Assembly (NCBI GenBank): GCA_963741305.1
Contig: CAVUHL010000003.1
Coordinates: 77,993 to 141,992, forward strand
Reading direction: 5' to 3'
Source: an uncultured Holophagales bacterium
GTDB lineage: Bacteria; Acidobacteriota; Thermoanaerobaculia; Multivoradales; UBA5704
Length of the DNA stretch: 64,000 nucleotides
Notes under the pieces: model-generated
The model's database searches: none
What the model was told of the DNA's origin: nothing
The model's input: only the letters and a program-made list of their open reading frames with translations
Part shown: one piece after another, positions 27,066-64,000 of the stretch
Layout: every line of letters starts with the position of its first letter
Numbering within the stretch: the first letter of the stretch is position 1
Translations under genes and position numbers: made by a program

Positions 27066-27497
27066 ATGCCCACGGACCGGATGTCCCGCTTCGAGGTTTT
27101 CATAGGCACTTGGAACACCACCGGCGAAGTCCTTGCAATCGATGGCGCCGAGGCTACCGTGCTGTCAGCCACGGACACCTACCGCTGGCTTCCGGGTAGG
27201 CAATTCATTGTGCATGACGTGGATGCCCGCTTCGGGCAGGCCGTTTCCCGCTCCATGGAAGTCATGGGCTACGACAAAGAGGCAAAGAAGTATTTCGCGC
27301 GGTCCTACGATGATCAAGGCGTGTCGGAAGTGTTCGACGTCAATCTGAGGGGGAAGAAATGGACTATCTCCGGTGCGGTCGTTCGTTTCAATGGTGGGTT
27401 CGACGCCCGAGGCGATAGGCTTACCGGGTTGTGGGAGATGAAGAGCAAGAAGGGCGGCTGGCAACCATGGATAAAGTTGCAGTTGGTGCGGGCGTGA
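27066..27497 (+). CDS. DUF1579-like (lipocalin-like) protein
   Basis: FEVFIGTWNTTGEV pattern (FxxGxWxxxG). Confidence 0.5.
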   Translation: MPTDRMSRFEVFIGTWNTTGEVLAIDGAEATVLSATDTYRWLPGRQFIVHDVDARFGQAVSRSMEVMGYDKEAKKYFARSYDDQGVSEVFDVNLRGKKWTISGAVVRFNGGFDARGDRLTGLWEMKSKKGGWQPWIKLQLVRA

Positions 27498-38992: not shown

Positions 38993-39574
38993 ATGGCATA
39001 CACTGATTCTCGCGTAACGATCCACATGGCGGCGAGCCTTGACGGCTTCATCGCTCGAAAAGATGGAAGTGTCGACTGGCTCGAGACCTCAGACGAATTT
39101 GTAGACGGCGACACCATGGATCCAGGATTCGTCGAGGCCTTCCTCAAGACGATCGACTGCTACGTCATGGGATCGCGAACCTATGAGACCGCGCTTCGTT
39201 TTGAAGCCCAAGGTTTGGGGTGGCCGTACGGTGATAAACCCACCTTTGTCCTCACTAGCCGGGAGCTGCCGCGGGTCCGGGATACCGTCGAGCTCTACTC
39301 AGGCGATCTTGCGCAGTTCGTGAATGGGCACCTGCGGCCCGCATTCCGTGCCATCTGGTTTGTTGGAGGCGGTGTAGTCTCCGCCGAATGCCTTCGTCTC
39401 GGGCTTGCCGACGAAGTCCGTTATTCGATTTTGCCGATCTTGATTGGTGATGGGGTCCCATTCTTCGAGAAGCTCGACAGAGACATCGCCCTCCACCTGG
39501 CGGAGGTCAAAGCCTACAAGAGCGGCATGGTGGAGCTCTGTTATGAGGTGCGAGGACATCGTACGGCTAGATAG
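38993..39574 (+). CDS. Dihydrofolate reductase-like / RibD C-terminal domain protein
   Basis: IHMAASLDGFIARKDGSVDWL, YVMGSRTYETAL, IWFVGGG. Confidence 0.75.
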   Translation: MAYTDSRVTIHMAASLDGFIARKDGSVDWLETSDEFVDGDTMDPGFVEAFLKTIDCYVMGSRTYETALRFEAQGLGWPYGDKPTFVLTSRELPRVRDTVELYSGDLAQFVNGHLRPAFRAIWFVGGGVVSAECLRLGLADEVRYSILPILIGDGVPFFEKLDRDIALHLAEVKAYKSGMVELCYEVRGHRTAR

Positions 39575-40050
39575 GTGCCACGTGCTTGTTGGGAAGCTCG
39601 GTCTCGTGGTGGACCTCGACGTGGCCGCTTGCCACGGCCAGCGAGCCGTAGACGGGGCACCGGCGTTGGAAGCCGGCTATGAGCTCCGTGGCCTGGGCCG
39701 GGCTTGGACCGCGCAGCCGAAAGATCAGCTCGACGGATGTGAACACCGTTACGTCAGTCCGCGGCTGCCGCTCGCGGTCGATGCTTCCGCGCACCGTTAC
39801 CTTCACGTGCTCGAGTGGGATGTGCGCATCCCGCGCGAGCACTTGAAGGACTTCGGCCCCCGCAGGCGGCGGCGGTGGTGAGGAAGAGCTCTCCGGGCGT
39901 CGGCGCCTCGCCGGGGCAGCCATTCTGCACTGGACCGTCCACGACGAGATGGTGCTGGCGGACGGTGCAACTCACCCTTCCAAAGATGGACGTCGTCTCC
40001 GCATGCGCCTCGTAGGTGCGCACGCCGGCAGGCGGCTCGACGGATTTCAT
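39567..40050 (-). pseudogene. OsmC/Ohr-family peroxiredoxin-like gene split by a frameshift
   Basis: N-terminal half in ORF 39754-40050 (HHLVVDGP...GELFLTTAAAC), C-terminal half in ORF 39567-39923 (CPVYGSL...HVEVHHE). The two are in different frames and overlap. Confidence 0.6.
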
Positions 40051-41078
40051 GTCCGCAGGTCGACGTAGGGCGGCGGCGGCTGGATCGCGGAGTAGTCGTT
40101 CTCGAAGATCAGGACGTTGCCGTCCCTCGCGACTTCCTTGAAGCCGGCGAACTTGTAGGTGATCAGCATCTGGCGGTTGCGGTCGTTCGACACGAACTCG
40201 GCGCGCAGCTTAACCCCGGCTTCCTTCGCCATGCGCAGGACGTAGTGAATCATGATCATTCCCACGCCCTTGGACATCACGCGGCAGGACATCAGCAGGA
40301 GCTTGACGTTCCAGACGTCCTTATCCATCTCGATGAGGGTGAGGCCGATCTTGCCGTAGGTGCCGTGCCGGTCCTGAAGGCTGGAGACGAGCAATTTGTG
40401 GCGCGGCGATTTCCGCAGCTCGTCCAGCTCTTCGTAGGAGTAGGTGTAGCCCGTGGTATTGAGCTGATTCGTGCGCACGGTCAGCTCCTCGGCGCGCTTC
40501 AGGTCTTCCTCGCGGCAGGGAGCGATCGTGAAGATCATCCCGAGCGTGGCAAGGAATTCCTCCTTGGGGCCGACGAACTCCTCTTCCTCCCGGTTGCGCC
40601 GGATGTCCGCCATGTACATGCGGCGGCGCTCTTTTGAATCCTCGGTGATGAAGCGCGGGTTGAGCTCCGGCCGGTCGAGCATGCCGTCGAGCTCCGCCGA
40701 GTCGATGCAGAGGACTTTGTCGTGAGAGAAAGCCACCTCTTCGCGCTCGAACGGCTGGTCGTCCACGAAGGCAATGGTATCCAGGCCGATGTTGATGTCC
40801 GCCGCGATCTGGGCGATGGAGGAGGCCTTGGAATTCCAGTTGATCTGCGGATAGAGGAAGTATTCCTCGATCCCGAATTCCTGGAGCTTCGCCAGGGCCG
40901 TATCGTGATCGTTGCGGCTGGCGATCGAATGCAGGATGCCGCGCTCGTCAAGGGTCTTCAGGATCTCCACGACATGAGGCCGGAGCCGGACTTCCGTGTC
41001 TTCCAGCAGAATGCCATCCCAGACGGTATTGTCCAGGTCCCAGACGACGCACTTGATCGAGGATTTCTTGTCGCTCAC
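40047..41078 (-). CDS. FkbH-like protein (HAD-IIIC phosphatase plus acyltransferase-like C-terminus); glyceryl-ACP forming
   Basis: VVWDLDNTVWDG (DxDxT), FVDDQPFE, C-terminal GNAT-like region. Adjacent to ACP, acyl-CoA DH and HADH as in hydroxy/methoxymalonyl-ACP loci. Confidence 0.75.
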   Translation of the reverse strand: MSDKKSSIKCVVWDLDNTVWDGILLEDTEVRLRPHVVEILKTLDERGILHSIASRNDHDTALAKLQEFGIEEYFLYPQINWNSKASSIAQIAADINIGLDTIAFVDDQPFEREEVAFSHDKVLCIDSAELDGMLDRPELNPRFITEDSKERRRMYMADIRRNREEEEFVGPKEEFLATLGMIFTIAPCREEDLKRAEELTVRTNQLNTTGYTYSYEELDELRKSPRHKLLVSSLQDRHGTYGKIGLTLIEMDKDVWNVKLLLMSCRVMSKGVGMIMIHYVLRMAKEAGVKLRAEFVSNDRNRQMLITYKFAGFKEVARDGNVLIFENDYSAIQPPPPYVDLRT

Positions 41079-42202
41079 AGCTCCTCCAGCTCGAAGCGCG
41101 CGATCGTGCTCTGCTGGATCTGCGTGCTCCCTTCGATGATCTCCATCACCTTGGCGTCGCGGAAGTAGCGCGACACCGGGAAGTCCTCATGGCAGCCGTT
41201 GCCGCCATGGATCTGGACCGCGTCCGATGCCGCACGGTTGGCGGTTGTGGACGCGAAGTACTTGGCGACCGAGGTTTCCGCGATAGCGCCGGGGTCGCCG
41301 GTGTCGCGCAAATAGCCGGCCCGCATGCAGAGCAGGCGCGCGGCGCGCACGTTGGTGATCATGTCGGAGAGCATTGCCCGGACGAGCTGGTGCTCGAACA
41401 GCGGCTGGCCGAACTGCTGGCGCTCGCGGGCATAGGCAAGGCACGCATCGAGGCAGGCCTGGGCGATGCCCACCGAGCCGCAGGCCACGCTGTAGCGGCC
41501 CTGGTCCAGCGCGGCGCCCACCACGTGGGAGACGCCGAAGCCGGGGCGGCCCACCATGTCCTCCGTCCGGGCTCCTTCCAGCTTCAGCTCGGCGAGCATC
41601 GACGCCCGGGTGCCCAGGATGCCGCGCAGGGGCGTGACCGTGAGGCCGGGGGTTTCGCGCTCCACGAGGAACGCCGTGGGCTTGCCGTCGAGCTTGGCGA
41701 AGAGCAGGTAGAGATCGGCGATCTGGCCGTAGGTGATCCATTTCTTGGTGCCGTCGAGCGCATAGCCGCCGTCCACTTCGACCGCCTTCGTCTGGATGCT
41801 CATGGCGTCGCTGCCCGCCTCGGGCTCGGAGAGCGCGAAGGCGCCGAGGATCTCCCCTCGGGCCAGGCGCGGCAGCCAGCTCTCTTTCTGCCGCTGGTTG
41901 CCCCAGCGCAGGATGCCCCGGCAGGCCATGTCGTGCACGGTGAGCAGCGAGCGGATCGAGGAGCAGCCGCGCCCGATCTCCTCGGTGAGCACACCGTAGG
42001 AGATCATGTCGAGGCCCTTGCCCCCGTGCTCGGCCGGCACCATGGAGCCGAGCCAGCCGCGCTCGACGAGCTTGTCCACGATACCGCGCGGGGTCGCCTC
42101 TTCGCGGTCCCATTGCCCGGCGTGCGGAGCGATCTCCTGCTGCACGAAGGCGCGGACTTCCGAGCGCAGCGCCCGTTGCTCCGGGGTGAGCTCGATCTTC
42201 AT
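41075..42202 (-). CDS. Acyl-CoA/acyl-ACP dehydrogenase (FkbI-like)
   Basis: ACAD fold motifs (GSDAMSIQT..., YASTTANRAASDAVQIHGGNG, EGSTQIQ). Confidence 0.85.
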   Translation of the reverse strand: MKIELTPEQRALRSEVRAFVQQEIAPHAGQWDREEATPRGIVDKLVERGWLGSMVPAEHGGKGLDMISYGVLTEEIGRGCSSIRSLLTVHDMACRGILRWGNQRQKESWLPRLARGEILGAFALSEPEAGSDAMSIQTKAVEVDGGYALDGTKKWITYGQIADLYLLFAKLDGKPTAFLVERETPGLTVTPLRGILGTRASMLAELKLEGARTEDMVGRPGFGVSHVVGAALDQGRYSVACGSVGIAQACLDACLAYARERQQFGQPLFEHQLVRAMLSDMITNVRAARLLCMRAGYLRDTGDPGAIAETSVAKYFASTTANRAASDAVQIHGGNGCHEDFPVSRYFRDAKVMEIIEGSTQIQQSTIARFELEEL

Positions 42203-42233
42203 AGTTTGATCTTCATGGCTCAGGGTTTGATCT

Positions 42234-42479
42234 TCATGGCTCAGGGCTGCTCTTACGAGCCACCAGGTTCGAGATGGCCTGGATGGAGCGGAAGTTGTCG
42301 AGGTCGAGGTCCTCGTCTCCGACCCGGATGCCGAACTCTTTCTCCACGAAGGCGACGAGCTGCATCGCCAGCAGGGAATTGACGAAGCCGAGGGCGAAGA
42401 TGTCCTCCTCCGGCTGCAGATCCTGGTTCTTGAAGAACCGCGACAGGAACTCTTTGATCTTGGTCTGAGTCTGGTCCAT
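42234..42479 (-). CDS. Acyl carrier protein (FkbJ-like)
   Basis: 81 aa MDQTQTKIKEFL...ALGFVNSLLAMQLVAFVEKEFGI, a 4-helix ACP-like sequence with a Ser in the GFVNSL context. The ORF track shows only a fused 278-aa ORF in this frame. Confidence 0.65.
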   Translation of the reverse strand: MDQTQTKIKEFLSRFFKNQDLQPEEDIFALGFVNSLLAMQLVAFVEKEFGIRVGDEDLDLDNFRSIQAISNLVARKSSPEP

Positions 42480-42487
42480 GTTTCCCT

Positions 42488-43351
<864 letters not shown>

Positions 43352-43352
43352 G

Positions 43353-44717: not shown

Positions 44718-44783
44718 CGTTTGCCCTCTGGGGAAAGACGGTCCGAATGCGGCCCGGAATATAGCAGAAGAAGACGGGAGCCC

Positions 44784-46079
44784 ATGAGCTATCAGCGCCC
44801 CACGCGCTTTCTGAACCGCGATTTCCTGCTGCTCTGGCAAGGCCAGTTCGTGAGCATGCTGGGCTCGCAGGCGTTCTCCGTCGCGATGATTTTCTGGATC
44901 AAGCGCCAGACCGACTCGGCGTCGCTCCTGGGGCTCGGCATGTTGTCGCAATGGGTGCCGGCGATCCTTCTCGGACCGTTCGGCGGCACCCTCGCCGACC
45001 GCATGTCGCGCCGGAAGATCTTGATCCTGGCCGACGTGGTGCGCGGTATTTCTGCCATTGCGCTGGCGGCCCTGGTGCTCCTGGATCCGGGGCGCTCAGG
45101 GTTGATCCTCGCCGGGCTGCTGGTGCTGTCCGCCATCATGGGGGTGTGCGACGCCTTCTTCCGGCCGGCGATCAGCGCCACGATCCCGGACCTTGTGCCG
45201 GAGAAAGACGTCACCCGTGCCAACTCGGCGAACCGCCTGGCGCTCGACGTTTCCACGTTCCTGGGCCAGGGCCTGGGAGGCGTGTTCTTCCGCATCATCG
45301 GTCCCGGCATCCTCTTTCTAATCGACGGCATTACCTATCTCTTTTCGGCGGTCACGGTGGGCTTGATCCGGATGCCGCCGCCACCCCCTGTCGTCAAGAA
45401 ATCGAGCTGGCGCGCTGCCGGCGCCGATTTCTGGCGCGAGCTGAAGCTCGGGCTGCGCTACGTGGCGAGCCGCAAGGGGCTGCGCTACATCCTCTTTCTG
45501 GCGCCGCTGGAAAGCCTTTTCATGGTCACGATCGTCGTGCTCCTGCCTTTCTTCGTCGAGGACTTCCTGCGCGTGAAGCCCGACTGGTACGGCTTTCTGG
45601 TGGCGGCCTTCGGCGGCGGCTCGTTCGTCGGCAGCATCGTGGCCGGCGGCACCAATGCCACGGGCCAGGTGCGCAAGTGGGCCTATCTGGCCTGCGCGCT
45701 GGGCTTCGGAGCCGCCGCCATCAGCCTCAGCTTCGCCCGTTCGCCATGGGTGACGATGGGGTGGATCTTCGCGGCGGGGGCGATGAGCGGCTTCAACACC
45801 ATCCACGCCCTGAGCCTGGCGCAGGTCACCACACCGCCCGAGCTGCGGGGCCGCGTCCTCGGCCTCTTCGAGACCCTGAGCCTCAGCGCCATGCCGATTG
45901 CCGCCGGTGCAGCCGGCATCGTCGCCGACCTCCTCGACCGCGACATCCCGCTCGTGTACCTCGGCTGCGGCGTCGCCCTGATCGTGGTGGCGCTGGTCCA
46001 GGCCGGGAAGCGCGAGGTGCGCGAGTTCCTGGACTTCGAGCCGCCCCCCGCGGAACCGGCGCCAGAGCCGAGCGCGTGA
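44784..46079 (+). CDS. MFS transporter (EntS/enterobactin-exporter-like)
   Basis: 12-TM MFS; LADRMSRRK motif loop; divergent from the BGC. Confidence 0.75.
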   Translation: MSYQRPTRFLNRDFLLLWQGQFVSMLGSQAFSVAMIFWIKRQTDSASLLGLGMLSQWVPAILLGPFGGTLADRMSRRKILILADVVRGISAIALAALVLLDPGRSGLILAGLLVLSAIMGVCDAFFRPAISATIPDLVPEKDVTRANSANRLALDVSTFLGQGLGGVFFRIIGPGILFLIDGITYLFSAVTVGLIRMPPPPPVVKKSSWRAAGADFWRELKLGLRYVASRKGLRYILFLAPLESLFMVTIVVLLPFFVEDFLRVKPDWYGFLVAAFGGGSFVGSIVAGGTNATGQVRKWAYLACALGFGAAAISLSFARSPWVTMGWIFAAGAMSGFNTIHALSLAQVTTPPELRGRVLGLFETLSLSAMPIAAGAAGIVADLLDRDIPLVYLGCGVALIVVALVQAGKREVREFLDFEPPPAEPAPEPSA

Positions 46080-46084
46080 CCGGG

Positions 46085-54500: not shown

Positions 54501-57500
54501 CCAGGAGGGCGGCCAGGTCCCCCCCCTGCTCATTAAGGAAGAGCGTGAGGTCGAACTTGGACGTTCCGGTGTCGATCCGCAGCAGCTCACAGTCCAGGCC
54601 CGGGGCAAGCTCGCCATCCTGCAAAGGATCGAGGGCGAACATCACCTGGAAGAGCGGGCTGCGCGACTGATCGCGCGCCGGCTGCAGCTCCTCGACAAGG
54701 CGCTCGAAGGGGAGCTCCTGATGGGCGTAGGCTGCGAGCGCCGACTCGCGCACCTGGGCCGCGAGGGCGCGGAAGGGCGGATCGCCAGCCAGGTCGGAGC
54801 GCAGAGCCAGGGTGTTGACGAAGAAGCCGAGCAGGCCTTCGCTCCCCGCCTCCCTGCGGTTGGCGACCGGCGTGCCCACTACCAGGTCCGTCTGGCCGGT
54901 GAACCGGCCGAGGAGTGCGGAGAAGGCCGCCAGGGCGGTCATGAACAGGGTCGAGCCTTCGCTCCGGGCGAGCACGCGGAGCCCGTTGGCGAGCTCGGCC
55001 GGGAATGCGAGCGGAAGAATGGCGCCGCGGAAGCTCTGCACCGGCGGCCGCAGGCGGTCGGCCGGCAGCTCGAGGGCGGCGGGCGCCCCGGCCAGGCGCT
55101 GCCGCCAGTAGGAGAGCTGCGCCTCCATGAATTCTTCGGAAAGCCGGTACCGCTGCCAGACGGCAAGGTCGGCATACTGGACCACCAGCTCGGAGAGAGG
55201 CGACGGCCGCCCGGCGCGGAAGGCGCCATAGAGAGCGCCCAGCTCGCTCCGGAGGACGCCGACCGACCAGCCGTCGAAGGCGGCGTGGTGGCAGGAGAAG
55301 ACCAGCAGGTGCTCCTGCTCGCCCAGACGCAGGAGGAAGGCACGTGCCACCGGGCCGCGGACGAGGTCGAATGGGCGCCGAGCCTCCAGCGCGGTCTGCC
55401 GGTCCGCCTCGGCAGAGGCAGCTGCCGGGGGCAGGCCGGAGAGGTCGGCCTGGGGCAGCCCGGGAGCATGAAACGGCGCCACGATCTGGAGCGGATCCCC
55501 ATCCGGCCCCTCGGCAAAGGTGGTGCGCAGGACCTCATGCCTCCGGAAGACCTCGTCCAGGCTGCGCTCCAGAAGCCTTCCGTCGAGCGGTCCGGTGAGG
55601 CGGAACGCCAGGGGCAGGTTGTAGACCGCCGAGTCCGGATCCAGGCGGTGGAGGAACCAGAGCCGCTCCTGGCCGAAGGAGAGGGGCAGTGACCGGTCCC
55701 GCGGGGCAGGCGCCAGTGGAGCCGGCTCGGGGCCGTCAGCGAGCCGCTCCTCTTCGATGCGCCGCGCCAGCGCAGCCAGGGTGCGGGCCTCGAAGGCGGC
55801 CCGCACCGGGAGCTCCACCCCGAAGACGGTGCGCACCCGCGCCAGCACCTGGCCGACGAGCAGCGAGTGTCCGCCGAGATCGAAGAAATCGTCGCCGGCG
55901 CCGATCTCCGTCCTGCCGAGGATCTCCCCCCAGATCCCGCCCAGCAGCTCCTCGGCAGGAGTGCCGAGGGTAGCGCGGCCGATCGCCGGCTCCTCCGCGG
56001 CGGGCGGAGGGAGGGCGCGCCGGTCGACTTTGCCGCCCGGGGTCAGCGGCAGGGCCGGCAAAAAGGCGAAGAAGGAAGGGACCATGTGCTCGGGGAGCCG
56101 CGAGCGCAGGAAAGCGCGGAGCTCCTGGACCGAGGGTACGTCCGGTCCAGCCACGTAGGCAGCGAGCCGGAGATCCTGGGGCGCGGCTTCATAAGGCACC
56201 ACGGCGGCCTCGCGTACGCCTGGATACTCGACGATCTGCGCCTCGACCTCCCCCGGCTCGATCCGGAAGCCGCGCACCTTGACCTGCCGGTCGGCGCGGC
56301 CGAGGAATTCGAGCTGGCCGTCGGGCCGGAAGCGGGCGAGGTCCCCGGTGCGGTAGAGGCGCCCGCCGGGCTCCTCACCCATGAAATCGGGGACGAAGGC
56401 GCCGGCCGTGAGATCGGGCCTTCCGAGGTAGCCGCGGGCGAGCCCCCTGCCGCCGATGTGAAGCTCCCCGGGGACCCCCTGGGGGAGGATCTCGCCATGG
56501 GGACCGAGCACCAGGAGCCGGCTGTCGGCGACCGGCCGTCCGATCGGCGTCTGGCCGTCCTCTCCGAGCCGTGCCATGGAGACGCAGATGCTCGCCTCGG
56601 TCGGCCCGTAGGCGTTCCACAACCGGCGCTCCACAGCCCAACGGGTCACCAGGGCGGGGGGGAAGGCCTCTCCTCCCACCACCAGACCGCGCAGGCCGGA
56701 TAGCTCCCGGCTCGCTCCCTCGGGCATCGCCGCAAGTGCGCTCGGCGTGAGAAAGACGTTGGTGATTCCGCGCCGCAGCAGGGTATCGAGCAAGGCCTGT
56801 CCCGGGAGGAGATCCTCGGAGCGGGCGAAGACGAGGGTCGCGCCGCGGATCAGCGTGCTCCAGATCTCCCACACCGAGGCGTCGAAGCTTGCGGAGGCGA
56901 ACTGCAGCACGCGGCTCCCCGGTTCCACTCCCGAGCGCTCGGCGAGAGCATCGACCGCCCAGAGGAATCCGCGGTGCTGGATGAGCACTCCCTTGGGGCG
57001 GCCGGTCGAGCCCGAGGTGTAGATGATGTAGGCGAGGTCCTCGGGATCTACCTCCTCCAGAGGCACGGGCGCCGTGCCCTCCGTTTCGAGCGGCACGAGC
57101 TCGGCCTCTCCGGTTGGCAGGGTGGCGGCGAGAGCGCTCCGCGCGAGGAGAACGGGAACGCGGGAGTCCTCCAGGGTGCTGGCGAGACGCTCGGCGGGAT
57201 GGGTCGGGTCGAGCGGCAGGAAGGCTCCTCCGGCCATGAGCACGGCGAGCATGCCCACCACGGTCTCCGGCGAGCGCTCGGCGTAGACGCCGACCCGCAC
57301 GTCGAGCCCCACGCCGCGGGATCGCAGACGGCCGGCGAGCCGCCGCGCCCGATCCACCAACTCGGGATAGGTCAGCTCCTGCGTTCCGAAATCGACCGCA
57401 ATGGCCTCGGGCGTCGCGGCCGCCCAAGCCGCGATGCGCGCCGGCACCGAGCCCTCCCAGACCGGCGGGGCGGGGGAGCGGCTCCATTCGACGAGGAGCG

Positions 57501-60500
57501 CTCTCTCCGCTTCGCCAAGCAGGGCAAGAGTCGAGAGCGGCGCCTCCGGCCGCGCCAGGGCATCGGCGAGAAGCGTCATCCATCCCCGGGCCAACCGGCC
57601 GGCTGTCGCCGAGGTGAAGAGGTCGGCGCTGGCGACCAACCGTCCGGAGACCTCTTCACCTTTCTCCTCCAGGTCGAGGAGGAGATCGACCTGCGCCGCG
57701 CCGTGGTCCTCCTCCCTCCAGGTCAGGGTCAGCCCGGGCGCCAGCTCCCGCGGGCCGGCGTTGCCGCGATAGGCGAAGAAGGCCTGGAAGAGCGGGTCCG
57801 CGCTGGATGCCTGTTGGGGCCGCAGCGACTCGGCCAGAGTATCGAGCGGCAGGTCCTGATGGGCAAAGACGCCGAGCGCCCGGGTGCGCACGGTGGCGAG
57901 CAGGTCGCTGAAGGCTGGATCGCCGGGGCGCTCGACCCGCAGCGGGAGGGCATTGGCGAAGTAGCCGATCATCCCCTCCAACTCGGGCCGGCCACGATGG
58001 GCGAAGACCGTACCGAGGACAAAGTCGTCCTGGCCAGTGATCCGGCGGAGCAGCGCCACCCAGGCGGCGAGGAGGACCATGTACCTCGTCGCCCCCTGCT
58101 GGCGAGCGAAGTCGCGCACCTCGCGTGAGATGGCGGGGGGGATGTCCAAACCCCGGCTCACCCCTCGCCAGCTCCGAACCGGCGGCCGCGCCTGGTCGGC
58201 CGGCAGCTCGAGGCCTGCCGGTGCCCCCGCGAGATGCTCCCGGAAGAAGGCGGCGTGGGGAGCCAGAACCTCCGCGCTCAGCTCGTCGCGCTCCCAGGCG
58301 GCGACATCCGCCGGCTGTACCGTAAGTGGCGGAAGCGGCGAGGGCCTTCCGTGCAGGAAAGCGAGGTAGAGCACTGCCAGCTCGCGCTCGAACACCTGGA
58401 TCGATGCGCCATCGGCGAAGACATGGTGGAAGGTGAGGAGCAGGTCGTGCTCGTTCTCCCCCGCTCGAAGCAGGCTGAGGCGCCAAAGAGCGCTCCGGTT
58501 GGGATCGAGCGGGCGCCGGGCCTCCTCCTGCGCCAGCCGTTCGCGCTCCGCGGACTGCCGGAGGAGGGGGAGCCCGGAGAGATCGACGAGCGGCAACCGC
58601 ACGGGCGAAGAGGGGGAGACGAGCTGGAGTGGCTCACCGTCCGGCCCGGGCTTAATCGTGGTCCGCAGGGCCTCGTGACGGGTGGCGATCTCCGTCAGGC
58701 AGCGTTCGAGGACGGCAGGTGCCAAGGGACCGTCCAGCCGCATCACCACCGGAATGTTGTTCACCGGCGTCCCCGGCACGAGCAGTTCGACAAACCAGAG
58801 CTGCCGCTGTGCCGAGGAGAGCGGCTCGCCCCCGGGATTCCGCGGCTGCGGCAGGATCGCTGCGCGGCGCGCGGGGCGCTCGGCGAGAGCCCGGTCGACT
58901 TGCTCCGCCAGGGCGGCGACGGTGCTCGCCTCGAAAACCACCGAGGGGGGCAGGTCGAGCTCGAGCGCCACCTGGATCCGCGCCTGAATCTGGGCGGCGA
59001 GCAGCGAATCGCCGCCCAGGTCGAGGAAGCCCTCGTCGATCCCCACCCGCCCGCGTCCGAGCACTTCCTCCCAGATCCCGGCCAGCAGCTCCTCGGTAGG
59101 ATTGCGCGGTGCTTGCACGTCCCCGGCGATACTTCCCATTGGGAGCGCGAGCTGGGCAAGGGCCTGGCGATCTACTTTGCGGTTGAGGGTCAAGGGAAGC
59201 GAGGGGAGCTCCACGAAGAGAGCCGGAACCATGTGCGCGGGCAGGCGAGAGCGGAGAAAGGCCCGCAGCTCGGCGCCGGAGGGCTTCCCCACGAAATAAG
59301 CCACCAGGCGCTTCCCGCCCGGTCCATCGTCCCGCGCCACCACCGCCGCCTCGCGCACCTCCGGGTGGGAGGCTAGGGCCACCTCGATCTCCCCAAGCTC
59401 GATGCGAAAGCCGCGTACCTTCACCTGGTGGTCGAGCCGGCCCAGGTATTCGATCCGACCGTCGGGCAGGGCGCGCCCGAGATCGCCGGTGCGGTAGAGC
59501 CTTTCCCCTGGCGAATCCGCCTCCGGGTCTGGCACGAAGCGCTCCGCCGTCAGATCGGGCCGGCCGAGGTACCCCCGGGCCAGGCCAGTACCGCCGAGGC
59601 AGATCTCGCCGTCGAGGAGACGGACCCGGGTGCCGGTGATCGGCTTCCCGATGGTCGGCTCGCTCCGGCTCCCGCGCTCCACAACCTCGAAGGTCGAGTA
59701 GGTCGTGTCCTCCGACGGACCATACAGGTTCAGCACTCTCTCGACGCCGGCTGTGTAGACAGCCTGGGCTAGGGAGCCTTTGAGCGGCTCGCCCGCCAGG
59801 TTCACCGTCCGCACTCCAGAAGGCAGGGCCCCGGCCCGCACCAGCTCGGCCATGGCCGATGGGACGGTATTGACCAGGGTGACCTCTCCGGCCGCCGGGA
59901 GATGGGGCAGCTCCAGGGCGTCTTCGGCGAGGACCACCCGGCCCCCGCAGGCCAGGGGCACGAACAGCTCGAAGACCGAGAGATCGAAGGAGATCGAGGT
60001 CGAGGCCAGGACTGCCGCCAGCTCCGCCGGGGTGAATACCGTTTGCGCCCAATGGACGAAGGCCACGGCGCTGCGGTGCTCGATCGCCACGGCCTTGGGG
60101 CGGCCGGTCGAGCCCGAGGTGTAAATCAGGTAGGCGAGATTGCCGGGGAGGGCGCGGATGGGTTCAGCCGCCGCCTCTTCCGTTACGCCGTCGATCACCA
60201 GCACCCGCGCATTGGAAGCGGGGAGGAGCCCGGCGAGGGCCGTCTCGGTGACCAGGACCGCGATGCCGGCGTCCTCCAGCATGAACCCCAGACGCTCCCG
60301 CGGATAGGTGGGATCGAGCGGCACGTAGGCACCGCCCGCCTCGAGGATGCCCAGAAGGGTCGTCACCAGCGCTGGTGACCGCGACAGGAAGACCCCGACC
60401 CGCACCTCCGGTCCGACCCCGAGCGCCGCCAGCCGCCGGGCCAGCCGGCCCGACCCGAGTCCGAGGTCGTGGTAGGTCAGGCGTCTGTCGCCGGCCACCA

Positions 60501-60597
60501 GGGCCACGGCCATCGGGGTACGCGCGGCCTGAGCGGCCACGAGCTCGTGCAGGCACGCCGCCACTGAGGCCTCCAGGCCCTCAGGCCGGCTGAGCAA
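48517..60597 (-). CDS. Non-ribosomal peptide synthetase, 4026 aa: A-T-C-A-T-C-A-T-C-T-C-TE
   Basis: Three A domains (LTYxEL, LKAGGAYVPLD, YTSGSTGRPK, GELxIGG, VKVRGFRIE). T domains (LGGDSL/LGGHSL/LGGYSL). Five C domains (HHxxxDG). C-terminal thioesterase GGWSLGG. Modules 1 and 3 are near-identical. Confidence 0.9.
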   Translation of the reverse strand: MLSRPEGLEASVAACLHELVAAQAARTPMAVALVAGDRRLTYHDLGLGSGRLARRLAALGVGPEVRVGVFLSRSPALVTTLLGILEAGGAYVPLDPTYPRERLGFMLEDAGIAVLVTETALAGLLPASNARVLVIDGVTEEAAAEPIRALPGNLAYLIYTSGSTGRPKAVAIEHRSAVAFVHWAQTVFTPAELAAVLASTSISFDLSVFELFVPLACGGRVVLAEDALELPHLPAAGEVTLVNTVPSAMAELVRAGALPSGVRTVNLAGEPLKGSLAQAVYTAGVERVLNLYGPSEDTTYSTFEVVERGSRSEPTIGKPITGTRVRLLDGEICLGGTGLARGYLGRPDLTAERFVPDPEADSPGERLYRTGDLGRALPDGRIEYLGRLDHQVKVRGFRIELGEIEVALASHPEVREAAVVARDDGPGGKRLVAYFVGKPSGAELRAFLRSRLPAHMVPALFVELPSLPLTLNRKVDRQALAQLALPMGSIAGDVQAPRNPTEELLAGIWEEVLGRGRVGIDEGFLDLGGDSLLAAQIQARIQVALELDLPPSVVFEASTVAALAEQVDRALAERPARRAAILPQPRNPGGEPLSSAQRQLWFVELLVPGTPVNNIPVVMRLDGPLAPAVLERCLTEIATRHEALRTTIKPGPDGEPLQLVSPSSPVRLPLVDLSGLPLLRQSAERERLAQEEARRPLDPNRSALWRLSLLRAGENEHDLLLTFHHVFADGASIQVFERELAVLYLAFLHGRPSPLPPLTVQPADVAAWERDELSAEVLAPHAAFFREHLAGAPAGLELPADQARPPVRSWRGVSRGLDIPPAISREVRDFARQQGATRYMVLLAAWVALLRRITGQDDFVLGTVFAHRGRPELEGMIGYFANALPLRVERPGDPAFSDLLATVRTRALGVFAHQDLPLDTLAESLRPQQASSADPLFQAFFAYRGNAGPRELAPGLTLTWREEDHGAAQVDLLLDLEEKGEEVSGRLVASADLFTSATAGRLARGWMTLLADALARPEAPLSTLALLGEAERALLVEWSRSPAPPVWEGSVPARIAAWAAATPEAIAVDFGTQELTYPELVDRARRLAGRLRSRGVGLDVRVGVYAERSPETVVGMLAVLMAGGAFLPLDPTHPAERLASTLEDSRVPVLLARSALAATLPTGEAELVPLETEGTAPVPLEEVDPEDLAYIIYTSGSTGRPKGVLIQHRGFLWAVDALAERSGVEPGSRVLQFASASFDASVWEIWSTLIRGATLVFARSEDLLPGQALLDTLLRRGITNVFLTPSALAAMPEGASRELSGLRGLVVGGEAFPPALVTRWAVERRLWNAYGPTEASICVSMARLGEDGQTPIGRPVADSRLLVLGPHGEILPQGVPGELHIGGRGLARGYLGRPDLTAGAFVPDFMGEEPGGRLYRTGDLARFRPDGQLEFLGRADRQVKVRGFRIEPGEVEAQIVEYPGVREAAVVPYEAAPQDLRLAAYVAGPDVPSVQELRAFLRSRLPEHMVPSFFAFLPALPLTPGGKVDRRALPPPAAEEPAIGRATLGTPAEELLGGIWGEILGRTEIGAGDDFFDLGGHSLLVGQVLARVRTVFGVELPVRAAFEARTLAALARRIEEERLADGPEPAPLAPAPRDRSLPLSFGQERLWFLHRLDPDSAVYNLPLAFRLTGPLDGRLLERSLDEVFRRHEVLRTTFAEGPDGDPLQIVAPFHAPGLPQADLSGLPPAAASAEADRQTALEARRPFDLVRGPVARAFLLRLGEQEHLLVFSCHHAAFDGWSVGVLRSELGALYGAFRAGRPSPLSELVVQYADLAVWQRYRLSEEFMEAQLSYWRQRLAGAPAALELPADRLRPPVQSFRGAILPLAFPAELANGLRVLARSEGSTLFMTALAAFSALLGRFTGQTDLVVGTPVANRREAGSEGLLGFFVNTLALRSDLAGDPPFRALAAQVRESALAAYAHQELPFERLVEELQPARDQSRSPLFQVMFALDPLQDGELAPGLDCELLRIDTGTSKFDLTLFLNEQGGDLAALLEYAADLFDAPTVARLGRSFITLLSGLAAEGTELPVSRMPLLGAGESWQILGEWHELLPPVPAVCIHDLVAAQAARTPDATALVAGRERLTYRELDLRAGELARRLAALGVGPEVRVGVCLSRSPALVVALLGILKAGGAYVPLDPNYPQERLGFMLEDADAAVLITEAALVSRLPTSQARVLLLDGKQEEEKEAEPIRALPGNLAYLIYTSGSTGRPKAVAIEHRSAVAFIHWAHGVFTPEELSSGLASTSISFDLSVFELFVPLARGGQVVLANNVLELPELPAAGEVIMVNSVPSAVSALLELVRALPERVRTVNLAGEPLKGSLAQALYSIGVERVRNLYGPSEDTTYSTFETVERGSRREPTIGRPIAGTWARLLDRHLELVPVGVPGEIYLGGAGLARGYLGRPELTAERFVPAPLEHGARLYRTGDLGRFLPDGRIEYMGRLDNQVKVRGFRIELGEIETALETHPQVHEAVVVARGEPGGDRFLAAYVVPAGQPAPTSGELAEHLRVRLAEFMVPSSFTLLDAMPLTPNGKIDRKALPAPESGPAALPAPLGPAAPLVELLSGIWAEVLGRDELPSPQDNFFELGGHSLLATRVASRLRAALGIEVPLRTLFAAPTVSALAAAISALGNRLAAALPPAPIEPAADRENLPLSFAQQRLWLLDRLEPGSPVYNLPFPHQILGPVAPACLERVLREVEHRHEVLRTTFAVDEETGEPRLNVAPPGGFSLPRIDLSALPSQAGEAEAGRLADEDAASPFDLASGPLFRARLLTLGAEEHHLLMTVHHVAGDGWSINLLLGELSALYQAYVAGRPSPLPEPVIQYAEFADWQRRWLDGPVLAGQLAYWRRQLAGAPAVLDLPADRPRPPVATSRGAHFLTSLPPGLTAEVRALSRRQGATLFMVLLSGFAALLERYTGETDILLGSPIAGRGRAETEGLIGFFVNTLVLRVDLDGAPSFGALIARVRETALAAYAHQDVPFERLVEELQPERSLARSPLFQVSFVLGVEETARELAPGVPLVPLTVENHTSKFDLTLGLDLRGDTLVADFEFRTDLFDRSTVERWADDFTRLLGLLAAHPEVPLPQIGLLSGIEHLKRGEEQVRLPRLLGEPEDGSSDSSQAPGGPPRSPLEELVAGLWAEALGRSTIGLHDHFFALGGYSLLAIRVLARLRAVTGVDLPLRAIFANPTAAALAAEIERSLRAQGAPPLPPITPAGTGSEAPAAAAQERLWYFHQLDRSGSVLNVPNPLRLSGPLQPAEFARSLSGIARRHDALRTTFFNGPEGLRQRIASPADVSLPLADLTALPAGPREEEARRLTEAEAREPFDLAMGPLWRARLIRLEKEEHRLLLTFHHIIVDGWSIDILERELGVPEPGEPALQYADFTVWQRRELTDERLAPQLDYWRRQLAGAPPVLDLPADRPRPPRPAFRGAARYLPLPQEVAAQTKELGRREGSTLFMTGLAAFAALAGRYTGRTDMVLGSPVANRHTPGTEGIFGFFVGVLPFRLDLSGDPTFRELLRRSREAALGAYAHPDVPFERLVEDLDLARDKSRTPLVQVMLSVRNGSGEPLRIGGLTAEPVEVHSATSQFDFTLGVVDLPQGLSLEAEYNTDLFTGTTVERMLAHLSRLLEAVAADPDVRLSALPAEIGPPKLVEARPVESSNKPPADDRGARLAARRAGLSAEERALLEQRLRARSGPKTDAPPPAAASLVSLQPAGSRPPFFCVHPAGGDVLAFQALSRHLGLDQPFHGLQSRGLGPGEMPFNSIEEMAARYRTEITAVTSGPYHIGGWSLGGAVAFELARQLAAEGREVALLAIVDSTPGPWPRPAEGHETEDDSDDTPWLLEIAHYLESLWGLDLGLTAENLRGLSSEDQALRLLSGLKDTPFGAKAGPESLRRLLAVFKTNVRAFRRYRPGPYPGKITLFLPAEGDFADDPTHGWGALSPLPVDIEIVPGNHVSALAEPHVGTLAERLRLSIDLSWDRSSTLETSPK

Positions 60598-63500
60598 CGG
60601 AGTCCTCGCGCAGTTCGCAAGCGGCCCTCTCCCGCTCGATCTGCTCCATCAGGAGATCCTCGACCGTCAGAGCGAGGTCGGCCACGGTGGTGTGCTCGAT
60701 CAGGTCGAGCAGGGGAACCTCGATGTCGAAGTCCCGCTGCAGCCGGCTCATCACCTGCGGCAGGAGCAGGGAGTGGCCGCCCAGCTCGAAGAAATCGTCG
60801 TTCGCCCCCACCCGGTCGACTCCGAGGACCTCGCACCAGATCGCCGCCACCCCCTCCTCGGCCGGCGAGGCAGGGGCCTCGTACTCGGCGGCTAGAGCCG
60901 GGCGGGAAGCGTCCGGGGCAGGCAGCGCCCGGCGGTCGACCTTGCCGCTGCCGTTGATCGGCAGGGCGGGGAGGGGCAGGTAGAGGGCGGGCACCATGTG
61001 CTCGGGGAGGTGCTCCTTGAGGAAGGAGCGCAGGTCGCCGACCTCGGTTGACCGGCCGGCATGGGGCACGACGTAGGCGACCAGGCGCAGATCGCCCGGC
61101 CGGTCCTCCCGCGCCAGGACCGCCACCTCGCGCAGCGCGGGATGTAGCGCCAGCGCGGCCTCGATCTCTCCCAGCTCCACCCGGAAGCCACGGATCTTCA
61201 CTTGGCGGTCGGTGCGTCCGAGGAACTCCAGATCTCCCGAAGGCAGCCAGCGCACCAAGTCGCCGGTGCGATAGAGCCGGGCACCGGCAACGCCAGCCTC
61301 CCCGGCCCAGGGATCGGGAAGGAAGCGCTCGGCGGTCAGGCCGGGCCGCCTCAGATAGCCGCGCGCCACGCCCGCTCCACCCAGGCAGAGCTCGCCGGGC
61401 ACGCCAACCGGCAACGGCTCCTGTTGCAGGTCGAGGACGTAGGCGCGGTAGCCCGCGAACGGCCGCCCGAGAGGCGCTTCGCGGAGGCCGTCGGAGGAGG
61501 CAAGCCAGGGCTCGAGGTCGCCGATCGTGGCTCCGATGGTGCACTCGGTCGGGCCGTAGGTGTTCCACAAGTGCACCCGGGTGCCGAGATGCCGGCGCCA
61601 AGCCTCCAACCGCTCCGGCAGGGGCCGCTCGCCGCCGATGATGACCCGCCGCAGGGCGGGGGGCCAGTCGACCCCATCCGTCAGGTCGGCCGCCAGCACG
61701 TGCCAGTAGGCGGTGGGGAGGGTGAGGAGGGTGATCCCCCGTTCCCGGCAGGCGGCTAGGAAGTCGGCGCTCGAACGCATCATCGCGTCGCTGCGCAGCA
61801 CCAGCGTGCCTCCCGTGGTCAGGACCGGGTAGATCTCCTCGGCGCTGTTGTCGAAGCTGATCGAGGCGAACTGCAGCACGCGGTCGGCGGGGCCGAAGCC
61901 GTACTCGACGAGATCTCCCGCGATGTAGCTCGCGAGCGAGCCGTGCGACACCATCACGCCCTTGGGCTTGCCCGTCGAGCCGGAGGTGTAGATCACGTAG
62001 GCGAGCCGCTCGAAGGTGGGATCGTCCGCCGGCGGGCTGTCAGGGCAGGCCGCGATCCGGTCGCGGTCCGCTTCCAGGCAGACGACGCCCACGCCGGACA
62101 GCACTTCCTCGCTGAAAGCGCCGAGCAGGCGCTGCTCGGTCACCAGGACCGGAGCTCCGGAGTCGGTCATGAGGAAGTCCAGGCGCTCGCGGGGGAGGGC
62201 AGGGTCCATCGGCACGTAGGCGCCGCCCGCCTTGAAGATGGCGAAGAGGGCGACGATCATCGCGGGCGAGCGCTCGAGGCTGAGGGCCACCGGCATCTCC
62301 GGCCTCACTCCCTGCCGGCGCAGATGGTGAGCGAGACGGTTGGCCCGGCGGTCGAGCTCCCCGTAGGTGATCTCGATCTCGCCGTCTTCCCCTGCCACCA
62401 GGGCCACGGCGTTGGGAGTCGCCTGGGCCTGCCGCGCGAAAGCGAGGTGGACCGGAAGCTCCGGAGTGACGGACTTCTCCGTCGACCAGGAGAGCACCTG
62501 CGCGGCCGCCTCCGGGGCGGCGAGCGGCAGCTCATCCAGAGTCCGTTCGGGTGCTAGGGCAATGCCGCCGAGCAGCACCTCGAGCTGGCCGAGCAGGCGC
62601 TCGATCGTCGCCTCCTCGAACAGCCGGGCGTTGTAGATCATGAAGGCCGAAATCCCTTGGTCTCCCGGTTCCAGGACCAGGCAGAGGTCGAAGATCTCCG
62701 TGGCCAATTGACTGCTGAGGCCGGTGCGCGAGGCACGCAGGGTCAGGCCGGAGAATTCCAACTGCGGTTCCGGCAGGTTCTGGACCTGGAACATCACCGA
62801 GAAGGGTTGCTGCCCGTGGCCCGGGTTCGTGGCCTGGAGCACGGTTTCGAGCGGCAGGTCCTGGTGGGCGTAGGCGCCGTTCGCCACCTCCCTCACCTGG
62901 GCCAGGAGCTCGCGGAACCCGCGGTCGCCGGATGCCTGCGTGCGCAGCACCAGGGTGTTGAGGAAGAAACCGATCAGCCCTTCGATCTCGCTGTGGGTGC
63001 GGTTGGCGATGGGGACGCCGACCAGCAGATCCTCCTCCCCGGTGTAGCGGTAGAGCAGGGTCTTCCAGGCGGCGAGGAGGAGCATGAAGAGGGTCGCTCC
63101 CTCGCGGTCGGCGAGCGTCTTGAGCTCTGCGGCGAGGGCGGCGGGCAGCATGCGGGTGACTCCGCCTGCAAGGAATCCCTGTCCGGCCGCCCGCGGACGG
63201 TCCGTGGGGAGGCGCAGGGGCGGCGGCGCTCCGGCGAGCTGCTCGCGCCAGTAGCCGAGCTCGCTTTCCAGCGTCTCTCCCTGGAGGTGCTCGCGCTGCC
63301 AGGCGGCGAAGTCGGCATACTGGATGGGCAGCGCGGGAAGGGGCGAGGGGCGGCCCTCCGCGAACGTTTGGTAAAGTGCGGCGATCTCGCGCACCAGCAC
63401 CACCCACGACCAGCCGTCGCCGATGGCGTGATGCATGTTGAACAGGCCCACGTGCTCCAGCGGCCCGGCGACGAGCAGGGTCGCGCGGAAGATCGGCCCG

Positions 63501-64000
63501 CGAGCCAGATCGAACGGGCGGTTGTGCGCCGCCGCTTCCAGGCGGGCCATTTCCGCTTGGCGCGCCGCGGCGGGCAGCCCCGCCAGATCGACCACGGGGA
63601 AGGGGAAGGGACCGGGCGGCAGGATGCGCTGCTGCGGGCTTCCCAGGTCGGCCGCGAACACGGTGCGCAGCGCTTCGTGGCGGCGCACGAGCTCGTCCAG
63701 GCAGCGGCTGAGGACCGGAATCGAGAGCGGGCCGCTCACTTCGACGCGGTTGAACAGGTTGTAGATCGGGGTCCCCGGGTCGAGCTGGTCGAGGAACCAC
63801 ATCCGCTCCTGGGAGAAGGAGAGCGGCGCGCGATCCGCGTCCCCGTCACGCCTCGGGATCCGCTGGCGGGGTTGCTCCTCAAAAGTACCCGCCCCGCTGC
63901 CGAGGACCTCTCTTACGACCGTGGCCGCCTGGGCCAGCGTGACCGCTCCGAGGAGCGGCTGGAGCGGCAGCTCGGCCTTGAAGGTGTCGCGCAGCCGCGA
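60581..64000 (-). CDS. NRPS (partial, continues beyond window): ...T-C-A-T
   Basis: C (MHHAIGDGWS), A (AGGAYVPMD, YTSGSTGKPKG) and T (FFELGGHSL) domains. The reading frame stays open to the window edge through a preceding T domain and C-domain start (LSFSQERMWFLDQL). Confidence 0.85.
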   Translation of the reverse strand, partial: SRLRDTFKAELPLQPLLGAVTLAQAATVVREVLGSGAGTFEEQPRQRIPRRDGDADRAPLSFSQERMWFLDQLDPGTPIYNLFNRVEVSGPLSIPVLSRCLDELVRRHEALRTVFAADLGSPQQRILPPGPFPFPVVDLAGLPAAARQAEMARLEAAAHNRPFDLARGPIFRATLLVAGPLEHVGLFNMHHAIGDGWSWVVLVREIAALYQTFAEGRPSPLPALPIQYADFAAWQREHLQGETLESELGYWREQLAGAPPPLRLPTDRPRAAGQGFLAGGVTRMLPAALAAELKTLADREGATLFMLLLAAWKTLLYRYTGEEDLLVGVPIANRTHSEIEGLIGFFLNTLVLRTQASGDRGFRELLAQVREVANGAYAHQDLPLETVLQATNPGHGQQPFSVMFQVQNLPEPQLEFSGLTLRASRTGLSSQLATEIFDLCLVLEPGDQGISAFMIYNARLFEEATIERLLGQLEVLLGGIALAPERTLDELPLAAPEAAAQVLSWSTEKSVTPELPVHLAFARQAQATPNAVALVAGEDGEIEITYGELDRRANRLAHHLRRQGVRPEMPVALSLERSPAMIVALFAIFKAGGAYVPMDPALPRERLDFLMTDSGAPVLVTEQRLLGAFSEEVLSGVGVVCLEADRDRIAACPDSPPADDPTFERLAYVIYTSGSTGKPKGVMVSHGSLASYIAGDLVEYGFGPADRVLQFASISFDNSAEEIYPVLTTGGTLVLRSDAMMRSSADFLAACRERGITLLTLPTAYWHVLAADLTDGVDWPPALRRVIIGGERPLPERLEAWRRHLGTRVHLWNTYGPTECTIGATIGDLEPWLASSDGLREAPLGRPFAGYRAYVLDLQQEPLPVGVPGELCLGGAGVARGYLRRPGLTAERFLPDPWAGEAGVAGARLYRTGDLVRWLPSGDLEFLGRTDRQVKIRGFRVELGEIEAALALHPALREVAVLAREDRPGDLRLVAYVVPHAGRSTEVGDLRSFLKEHLPEHMVPALYLPLPALPINGSGKVDRRALPAPDASRPALAAEYEAPASPAEEGVAAIWCEVLGVDRVGANDDFFELGGHSLLLPQVMSRLQRDFDIEVPLLDLIEHTTVADLALTVEDLLMEQIERERAACELREDSVAQPA

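Follow-up and report, generated by a model that had tools for sequence, protein, structure and literature searches.

For hydroxymalonyl-acyl carrier protein (hydroxymalonyl-ACP), the only sources listed as known are Bacillus, Xenorhabdus, Paenibacillus and Streptomyces, and its use as an extender unit is supported by labelling of butyrolactol (PMC5355916). The subject of this study is a 64,000-nucleotide stretch of DNA (hereafter the window) from an uncultured soil bacterium of the Thermoanaerobaculia (Acidobacteriota), i.e. positions 77993-141992 of contig C3 in the source genome (G000; 8.8 Mb, 66.6% GC), in which a candidate cassette for this unit adjoins a large biosynthetic gene cluster. 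The hydroxymalonyl-ACP pathway of zwittermicin A was reportedly described by Chan et al. in 2006, and in the pyoverdine (PvdL, PvdQ) and telomycin (Tem25) systems we take assembly to be initiated on a lipid that is afterwards removed by deacylation. To our knowledge, almost no natural products of Acidobacteriota have been characterised.

The locus is a ca. 40-kb gene cluster (C3:118039-157724) of hybrid lipopeptide-polyketide type, and not a pure nonribosomal peptide synthetase (NRPS) cluster. A preliminary description of the window had named it an NRPS cluster; the NRPS genes are present and the class was amended, since FAAL (fatty acyl-AMP ligase), polyketide synthase (PKS) and NRPS are combined, with the PKS module lying just outside the window. 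With a probability of roughly 0.7, we propose that the cluster is fed hydroxymalonyl-ACP by the adjoining cassette and that its product is deacylated by an acylase; this product is most likely a fatty-acid-started peptide-polyketide with a rare hydroxylated two-carbon unit.

The cassette lies on the minus strand. An FkbH protein (40047-41078; ZmaN-like), by family a loader of glyceryl-ACP, matched TIGR01686 (263 bits, cut-off 146.65) and the HAD-IIIC model TIGR01681 (73.7 bits, cut-off 35.75), and has a DLDNT HAD motif near its N-terminus. Upstream of it follow an acyl-coenzyme A (acyl-CoA) dehydrogenase homolog (41075-42202; FkbI/ZmaE-like; Pfam Acyl-CoA_dh N, M and C-terminal domains), a free-standing ACP of 81 aa (42234-42479; FkbJ/ZmaD-like; PP-binding, 34.8 bits), and a 3-hydroxyacyl-CoA dehydrogenase homolog (42488-43351; FkbK/ZmaG-like; 3HCDH_N 191 and 3HCDH 114 bits). 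The ACP and both dehydrogenase homologs are held in a single operon with FkbH, which is headed by a cytochrome P450 gene (43353-44717, minus strand; 454 aa, Pfam p450 170 bits). From their families, the 3-hydroxyacyl-CoA dehydrogenase homolog would carry out the first oxidation of glyceryl-ACP, and the acyl-CoA dehydrogenase homolog the second, yielding hydroxymalonyl-ACP.

The preliminary description had named this FkbH, FkbJ-like, FkbI-like and FkbK-like route and had left the FkbH/HAD-IIIC domain to be checked; the route was correctly named according to the Pfam and NCBIfam matches, and the domain is present, with both curated cut-offs passed. The same source had reported no adjacent O-methyltransferase, in agreement with our scans, by which no FkbG-type O-methyltransferase was found from 40047 up to where gene A starts, while two nearby methyltransferase or methyltransferase-like open reading frames (ORFs) are not conserved with either the cluster or the cassette. 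Since there is no O-methyltransferase, the unit would stay a free hydroxyl, i.e. hydroxymalonyl and not methoxymalonyl. The genome holds one orthologous cassette. Elsewhere in the genome, a 656-aa open frame with an FkbH-like domain (33% identity; C3:5445825-5446811, minus strand) is present in most relatives as well, and is unrelated to the cassette.

A candidate for the consumer of the unit is found in gene B (2106 aa), which has the domain order ketosynthase (KS), acyltransferase (AT), ACP, condensation (C), adenylation (A) and thiolation (T) according to Pfam. Its 3′ part, C-A-T, occupies 60581-64000 of the window on the minus strand, and the KS-AT-ACP part continues over window-equivalent positions 64001-66901. 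The gene B AT has GHSLGE and then VAFAGHSP, in which FAGH replaces the malonyl-type HAFH, together with a hydrophobic I-AAM-P at the RXR position. Both FAGH and HAGH are listed as motifs of methoxymalonyl-type ATs (PMC7327777), and in ATs for ACP-borne units the RXR of CoA-dependent ATs, located five residues ahead of the motif, is replaced by hydrophobic residues, as in the MCM of ZmaA (PMC4207774). The gene A AT, with GHSLGE and HAFH, carries the malonyl-CoA signature. Among the other ten modular ATs of the genome, the third position of the patch is Arg in nine and Ile in one (SCI), and the next position is R or P in 10/10; both signatures of the ACP-borne glycolate type were found in the gene B AT only, i.e. 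in one of 11 modular ATs. Five orthologs of 81-92% identity (G007, G041-G044) keep VAFAGHSP without change. On these motifs, the gene B AT is the likely consumer of hydroxymalonyl-ACP. A second xAGH-type AT (AAGH; C3:1419495-1420502), with a CoA-type DAR-R patch, is located in another PKS cluster together with an HAFH AT at 1413363.

The assembly line opens with gene A (3245 aa; FAAL-ACP-C-A-T-KS-AT-ketoreductase (KR)-ACP by Pfam), which ends at window-equivalent 79732. Its N-terminal part (FAAL, ACP and C) comprises AMP-binding, a DIP2-like C-terminal domain, PP-binding and Condensation, and the best solved relatives of the FAAL are a PKS FAAL domain (606 bits), the saframycin Mx1 FAAL, FadD23, FadD32 and FadD28. 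Pocket residues of the A domains, including position 278, were assigned from motif anchors and a single pairwise alignment, with no direct alignment to GrsA. The gene A pocket read in this way, ASGSLGGVCK, is without Asp235, and the same pocket is found in G007, G041 and G044. For gene B the pocket is DNETIGTIGK, with DTELIGTVCK in G041 and DAEDIGTVTK in G044; Glu239 is present in all three, which may point to a basic side chain.

Gene C (48517-60597, minus strand) encodes a 4026-aa NRPS with four C, three A and four T domains and one thioesterase (TE) domain by Pfam, in the order A-T-C-A-T-C-A-T-C-T-C-TE. Its near-identical A1 and A3 domains have a common pocket, DLFNNALTYK, in which position 331 of A1 was set to Y from the identical local sequence in place of the T given by the aligner, and A2 has DAWFVGAICK; these are presumably an Ala-type and a hydrophobic pocket, respectively. 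A full-text literature search returned no match for the code DLFNNALTYK. Pockets of gene C vary among orthologs, unlike the constant pocket of gene A.

Directly downstream of gene C is an N-terminal nucleophile (Ntn) acylase of the penicillin-amidase family (46085-48520, minus strand). The Penicil_amidase domain is full-length (782 bits over residues 62-809), the N-terminus is a hydrophobic anchor or signal (MKSRLWKVLRWTAVVLVG), and the beta chain starts at the nucleophile Ser275 (between G and SN in G-S-N-G-W), where solved penicillin G and glutaryl-7-ACA acylases begin to align with their beta chains. Among solved structures, the acylase is most closely related to D-succinylase (296 bits), to penicillin G acylase and to glutaryl-7-ACA acylase; PvdQ structures were absent from the 39 solved relatives at E≤1e-20. 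The stop codon of gene C and the start codon of the acylase gene overlap as ATGA, so that the acylase is translationally coupled to the TE-bearing NRPS. In Acidobacteriota and Chloroflexota, orthologs or paralogs of the acylase likewise directly follow TE-bearing NRPS genes or adjoin FAAL-PKS-NRPS genes. Given the FAAL start, removal of the lipid in the periplasm is the most economical reading of the role of the acylase.

Acylase paralogs of 43-55% identity beside a TE-bearing NRPS or FAAL-PKS-NRPS genes were located in the source genome itself (C3:2536477-2538903), on contig C56 of G003, and at the loci L092-L097 and L110. The Chloroflexota metagenome-assembled genomes (MAGs) with such paralogs are of Herpetosiphonaceae, Thermoflexales and Chloroflexaceae, and the pairing with a megasynthase recurs across phyla.

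The cassette is distributed more widely than the cluster. Ortholog-level FkbH (61-97% identity) was identified in two other families and, within the family of the source genome, in 19 of 24 genomes. The gene order of the cassette is unvaried in all 19 relatives, the ACP is 74-99% identical, and the acyl-CoA dehydrogenase gene is kept in all relatives, except in a second copy of the cassette in G044. Trees of FkbH and of the 3-hydroxyacyl-CoA dehydrogenase track the genera, with the G000, G003 and G008 copies branching from within the "lone" copies of their genus. The lone cassettes usually have glycosyl hydrolases, a PALP enzyme and an aminotransferase beside them; the ancestral neighbours (GH1-like, GH43, radical-SAM-like, PALP enzyme and aminotransferase) give no functional hint. 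In G000, the ancestral neighbours are at 2.24 and 2.35 Mb, and the cassette has therefore moved. The cassette is a vertically inherited family operon, older and wider than the cluster, and in G000 it stands beside its likely consumer. Its earlier inclusion in the cluster is correct as to adjacency and not as to cluster-specificity, the cassette being a family-wide operon mostly unlinked to a megasynthase.

Other megasynthases beside the cassette are a different giant NRPS in G008 and other PKS-NRPS genes in G016 and G034. In G008, which is of the same genus and from which the cluster is absent, the locus spans ca. 5.6-35.5 kb of contig C52 (L016, L017) and has the same cassette with the same downstream OsmC gene. 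Upstream of that cassette are an MFS (major facilitator superfamily) gene and a divergent 8984-aa NRPS frame with an embedded FkbH-like domain (28% identity). In another relative (L040, on contig C20 of G005, 9949-10963) two frames, broken near residue 170, make up the FkbH ortholog, owing either to a frameshift or to a sequencing error.

Acylase orthologs (72-91% identity) together with gene C orthologs were found in at least 15 MAG species. All eight cluster-bearing genomes found also hold the cassette, and none of the five cassette-free genomes of the family has the cluster (0/5); this co-occurrence, in few and related genomes, is consistent with a link and is not proof of it. The cassette adjoins the cluster only in G000, G003 and G007, and in G014 cluster and cassette are on different contigs. 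G044 has two cassettes: a complete lone copy on contig C49, and a cluster-linked second copy (L141, JAXDKS010000069, 10272-13877) with the order P450, 3-hydroxyacyl-CoA dehydrogenase, ACP and FkbH, and without the acyl-CoA dehydrogenase gene. This second copy directly follows the P450 of the cluster at the gene A end, and branches apart from the G000 clade. In G044, P450 and cassette have thus been linked to this cluster a second time, independently.

A number of observations weigh against the proposed reading, and most of these bear on the link between cassette and cluster. Motif rules for ATs are correlative. The best solved relative of the gene B AT is the ZmaA AT (227 bits, PDB), and this similarity was set aside as evidence for hydroxymalonyl specificity because it does not discriminate: the malonyl-type (HAFH) AT of gene A scores 282 bits. 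In 13 genomes the cassette is without an NRPS or PKS within the 5-20 kb fetched on each side. The complete chromosome of G041 (OY969112.1) has the cluster at 6.41-6.45 Mb and its cassette at 0.907 Mb, and that of G042 has the two at 4.12-4.16 Mb and 0.915 Mb, respectively; the distance is 1.5 Mb in G041 and 3.2 Mb in G042, and the adjacency in G000 is therefore recent and could be incidental. As regards the acylase, the PvdQ equivalog model NF051460 gave 75.5 bits against a cut-off of 950, and the former label "PvdQ-like acylase" is valid at the level of the Ntn superfamily and fails for a PvdQ ortholog. The first A domain, in gene A, is without Asp235, and were its substrate free of an amine, the acylase would have no N-acyl amide to cut. 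Finally, no C domain is positioned for chain transfer from gene B to gene C.

In a rival explanation, the FkbH cassette is a mere neighbour, i.e. a family operon serving other PKSs or a non-polyketide acylation, with the PKS modules of the cluster using CoA-linked units. The presence of the cassette in most of the family, its 13 lone occurrences beside glycosyl hydrolases, PALP enzyme and aminotransferase, a phylogeny that follows the genera, and the megabase distances in G041 and G042 all fit this explanation, as does the result that no clear xAGH consumer was found among 30 ATs read, a part of all ATs, in the lone-cassette genomes G009, G012, G018, G022 and G024 (odd motifs in these five were VAAH, GAYH and LAFH). 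It leaves aside, however, that the gene B AT is alone in its genome in having both ACP-type signatures and keeps them in five orthologs, that this genome has a single cassette, that P450 and cassette are translationally coupled through a 1-nt junction, and that an independent second cassette is tied to the same P450 in G044. Moreover, location of cluster and cassette in separate loci is fully compatible with supply in trans, from a shared and distant cassette. We consider mere neighbourhood unlikely.

Since no C domain is available between genes B and C, simple colinear assembly cannot be right as written. Gene C begins with A-T and has no N-terminal C domain in G000, G007 and G044 (67-86% identity). 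In G041, the start of the ortholog has only the C-terminal lobe of a C domain (ca. 240 aa; L144+L145, nt 27088-27955 of the joined stretch), which is a vestige of the first C domain wholly missing in the other three. At the opposite end, all gene C orthologs and paralogs examined end in T-C-TE. In G000, the terminal C4-TE covers 48580-50850 (minus strand; TE 108 bits), and C4 has an intact HHIIVDGWS and a deletion of 11-13 aa after the motif. Among solved structures, C4 matches true C domains best (205-288 bits, with Txo2 at 288), against 156 bits for the glycopeptide X-domain 4TX2. C4 was accordingly rejected as a glycopeptide X-domain recruiting the P450, given also that the catalytic motif is intact and that the P450 is CYP51-like and not Oxy-like. 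A glidonin-type C-A*-T-TE end was rejected as well, with the TE directly after C4 and neither an A5 motif nor a PP-binding domain between.

Module 4 of gene C (C3-T4, 50878-52542, minus strand) is without an A domain, as seen from the spacing of successive HHxxxDG motifs, which is ca. 550 aa in G000 and 556 aa in G003 compared with 1055-1123 aa in seven A-bearing orthologs and paralogs. The A domain is kept in most relatives (pocket DAWFIGHVVK in G007), and is absent from G000, G003 and a more distant homolog in G017. This raised the explanation that FkbH, or its ACP-bound product, loads the A-less T4, and that the glycerate-derived unit enters through a C domain and not through the PKS. The cassette adjoins the cluster in both G000 and G003, and the NRPS beside the same cassette in G008 has the embedded FkbH-like domain, which are points in favour. 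However, the A domain kept in most orthologs indicates that the A-less state is a derived deletion, and G007 (L087) keeps A4 although the cassette adjoins there too. The cassette furthermore brings an ACP of its own along with the two oxidoreductases, and there is an AT to match. Loading of T4 by FkbH appears highly improbable in comparison with use of the unit by the gene B AT.

The same features could mark a decaying assembly line that no longer makes a product, with the first C domain of gene C lost, of which G041 retains the C-terminal half, A4 deleted in G000 and G003, and C4 shortened after HHxxxDG. Against decay, dN/dS between G000 and G007 is 0.2-0.4 in every gene C domain, including A1, T4, C4 and TE, from which it follows that the system is maintained. 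In addition, the open frames of 3245, 2106 and 4026 aa are free of stops, the C-less start is common to G000, G007 and G044, and every catalytic motif read is intact. Decay is hence very unlikely.

Several explanations of the unusual wiring were considered. C4-TE may serve gene B's terminal carrier in trans, and T4 may be loaded by A3 or A1. In the GdnB termination module of Schlegelella brevitalea (C13-A*-T13-TE), an intact C domain frees or caps the peptide with a free amine (PMC10587159), and C4 might by analogy cap the chain with an amine. A more speculative and rather improbable possibility is a convergent line, in which gene C would start its own peptide at A1-T1, C4 would join it in trans to a second amine of the Glu239-pocket (diamino-acid-type) residue of gene B, and the TE would release or cyclise a branched lipo-ketide-peptide. 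If true, convergent assembly would be a two-start NRPS logic common to the Acidobacteriota cluster family that ends in T-C-TE.

The P450 is related to CYP51 among solved structures, with just 110 bits. Its orthologs (65-92% identity) travel with the cluster, with alignments that begin at residues 49-79 of the ORF, and ATG 44717 was taken as the start, the ORF start at 44951 being set aside. The MFS transporter (44784-46079, plus strand) is of the EntS/Mef-like family (MFS_3 122 and MFS_1 119 bits) and scored 211 bits against TIGR00900, under the cut-off of 319.6; its orthologs (74-94%) accompany the cluster in either orientation. At several loci, P450 and MFS are both missing within 10 kb of the acylase. 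Between genes A and B, a presumably secreted DUF5916/CBM9 protein of 811 aa with a signal-peptide-like N-terminus is encoded on the minus strand (window-equivalent 66920-69355, L001:6913-9348), and a gap of 639 nt separates its gene from gene A. It is located inside the cluster in G007 (88%), G044 (66%) and G041 (60%); in L090 (46%) its position is after the acylase. As to its function, an Atlas search gave DUF5916 clusters alone.

All nine genes that had been named in the window were found at their coordinates and on their strands by ORF listing and by Pfam and NCBIfam scans. The prediction that the cluster continues past the window proved right: 15.7 kb are outside it, with the rest of gene B (to window-equivalent 66901), the DUF5916 gene and gene A (to 79732) according to Pfam. 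The overlapping or near-abutting gene boundaries were also borne out, with gaps from FkbH onward of -4, 31, 8, 1, 66, 5, -4 and -17 nt, the first three being internal to the cassette. The MFS gene is, as described, divergent from the P450 gene (66 bp), and it is convergent with the acylase gene (5 nt). By the start codons and the gap table, the divergent intergenic region is at 44718-44783, and is predicted to be a shared promoter region.

The start codons were placed at ATG 44784 for the MFS gene, ATG 48520 for the acylase gene, and ATG 42479 for the ACP gene, which has a GAGGGA ribosome-binding site upstream. The stop codon of the acyl-CoA dehydrogenase gene overlaps the GTG start of FkbH as GTGA, and GGAGGAG is located within the 3′-end of the P450 gene, the stop of which is 1 nt from the ATG of the 3-hydroxyacyl-CoA dehydrogenase gene. 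Read in this way, the junctions give two minus-strand units, one from gene A to the acylase and one from the P450 to FkbH.

The cluster has no MbtH-like gene, the sole one of the genome being at C3:4180318, and no siderophore uptake genes were seen. Upstream of gene A, a 610-aa weakly methyltransferase-like ORF and a BNR protein were placed outside the cluster, being unconserved in G007, G041 and G044. Directly downstream of FkbH, an OsmC-like sequence is split across two overlapping ORFs (39567-40050, minus strand), and an OsmC match of 90% identity follows the cassette in G008 as well. A lower-GC stretch just outside the cluster has a UbiE/Methyltransf_25-type methyltransferase (37994-38866, plus strand) and a RibD_C-domain protein (38993-39574, plus strand), neither of which is kept beside the cassette in the relatives compared.

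The identities of genes and domains, the operon layout, the AT motifs and conservation are shown by the data; substrates and the order of steps are proposed as follows. The FAAL of gene A would load a fatty acid onto its own ACP, and the starter C domain would couple it to an unusual first unit selected by the pocket without Asp235. A reduced C2 unit would be added by the malonyl-specific KS-AT-KR-ACP module of gene A. FkbH would put glycerate on the free-standing ACP for oxidation by the two dehydrogenase homologs, and the KS-AT-ACP of gene B would add the hydroxymalonyl unit from this carrier, with the hydroxyl staying free. Gene B would next add an amino acid through its Glu239 pocket, and gene C three or four more residues, with the thioesterase following. 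The MFS pump would export the product, from which the membrane-anchored or periplasmic Ntn acylase would strip the acyl group by the logic of PvdL/PvdQ or Tem25, and the P450 may hydroxylate some position of the product.

Beyond the first reading of the window, the analysis adds a family-wide, mostly unlinked cassette with a single identifiable consumer AT, and the conserved C-less start and T-C-TE end of gene C. The operon for a rare polyketide unit is vertically inherited, and usually free-standing, across an NRPS/PKS-rich family of uncultured soil Acidobacteriota. Extender-unit cassettes may accordingly sit outside the clusters that they feed, which bears on automated calls of cluster boundaries. 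The C-less start, the T-C-TE end and the partner acylase mark a cluster family with a logic of transfer and release beyond textbook colinearity. With its size of ca. 40 kb, the cluster is a concrete and testable target for heterologous expression.

No literature was found on FkbH cassettes of Thermoanaerobaculia or on this cluster. The uncultured soil Acidobacteria of the Candidatus Angelobacter type likewise have large genomes with very many NRPS and PKS genes (PMC9723581), and 220 C-domain candidates were counted in the source genome; FkbH cassettes are not discussed in that report (PMC9723581). With PvdL/PvdQ and Tem25, the cluster shares an acyl-adenylating start followed by an ACP, and an exported or anchored Ntn acylase encoded with the NRPS, whereas the acylase does not reach the PvdQ equivalog model and siderophore uptake genes were not seen. 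The resemblance to the glidonin synthetase GdnB is an intact C domain in the termination region ahead of the TE; here the end is T-C-TE, and the C domain is followed by neither an A* nor a second T.

The methoxymalonyl-ACP cassettes of FK520 and ansamitocin (fkbGHIJK) have FkbH, FkbJ, FkbK and FkbI homologs in common with the present one, and differ from it in the FkbG-type O-methyltransferase. A FAGH/HAGH-type AT is likewise shared with these systems (AT motifs, PMC7327777). The butyrolactol A locus of Streptomyces (PMC5355916) has the same order of 3-hydroxyacyl-CoA dehydrogenase, ACP, acyl-CoA dehydrogenase and FkbH, with no O-methyltransferase near and an MFS gene nearby. It is, however, from a different phylum and of type I PKS throughout, with four uses of the unit and no NRPS, FAAL, acylase or P450.

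Zwittermicin A of Bacillus cereus (ZmaN, ZmaD, ZmaG, ZmaE and the ZmaA AT; PMC4207774) shares the same four enzyme types with no O-methyltransferase in a PKS-NRPS hybrid, and a cis AT with a motif other than YASH or HAFH and a hydrophobic patch at the RXR position. The two systems differ in these AT motifs (FAGH and AAM here, GAAH and MCM in ZmaA; GHSLGE here, GYSFG in ZmaA), in the aminomalonyl branch, which the present cluster does not have, in the start (FAAL-lipid here, N-acyl-D-Asn there), and in the enzyme of maturation, which is an Ntn acylase here and a ZmaM-type peptidase there. The cluster is thereby an uncharacterised further case of the PKS-NRPS class using hydroxymalonyl-ACP.

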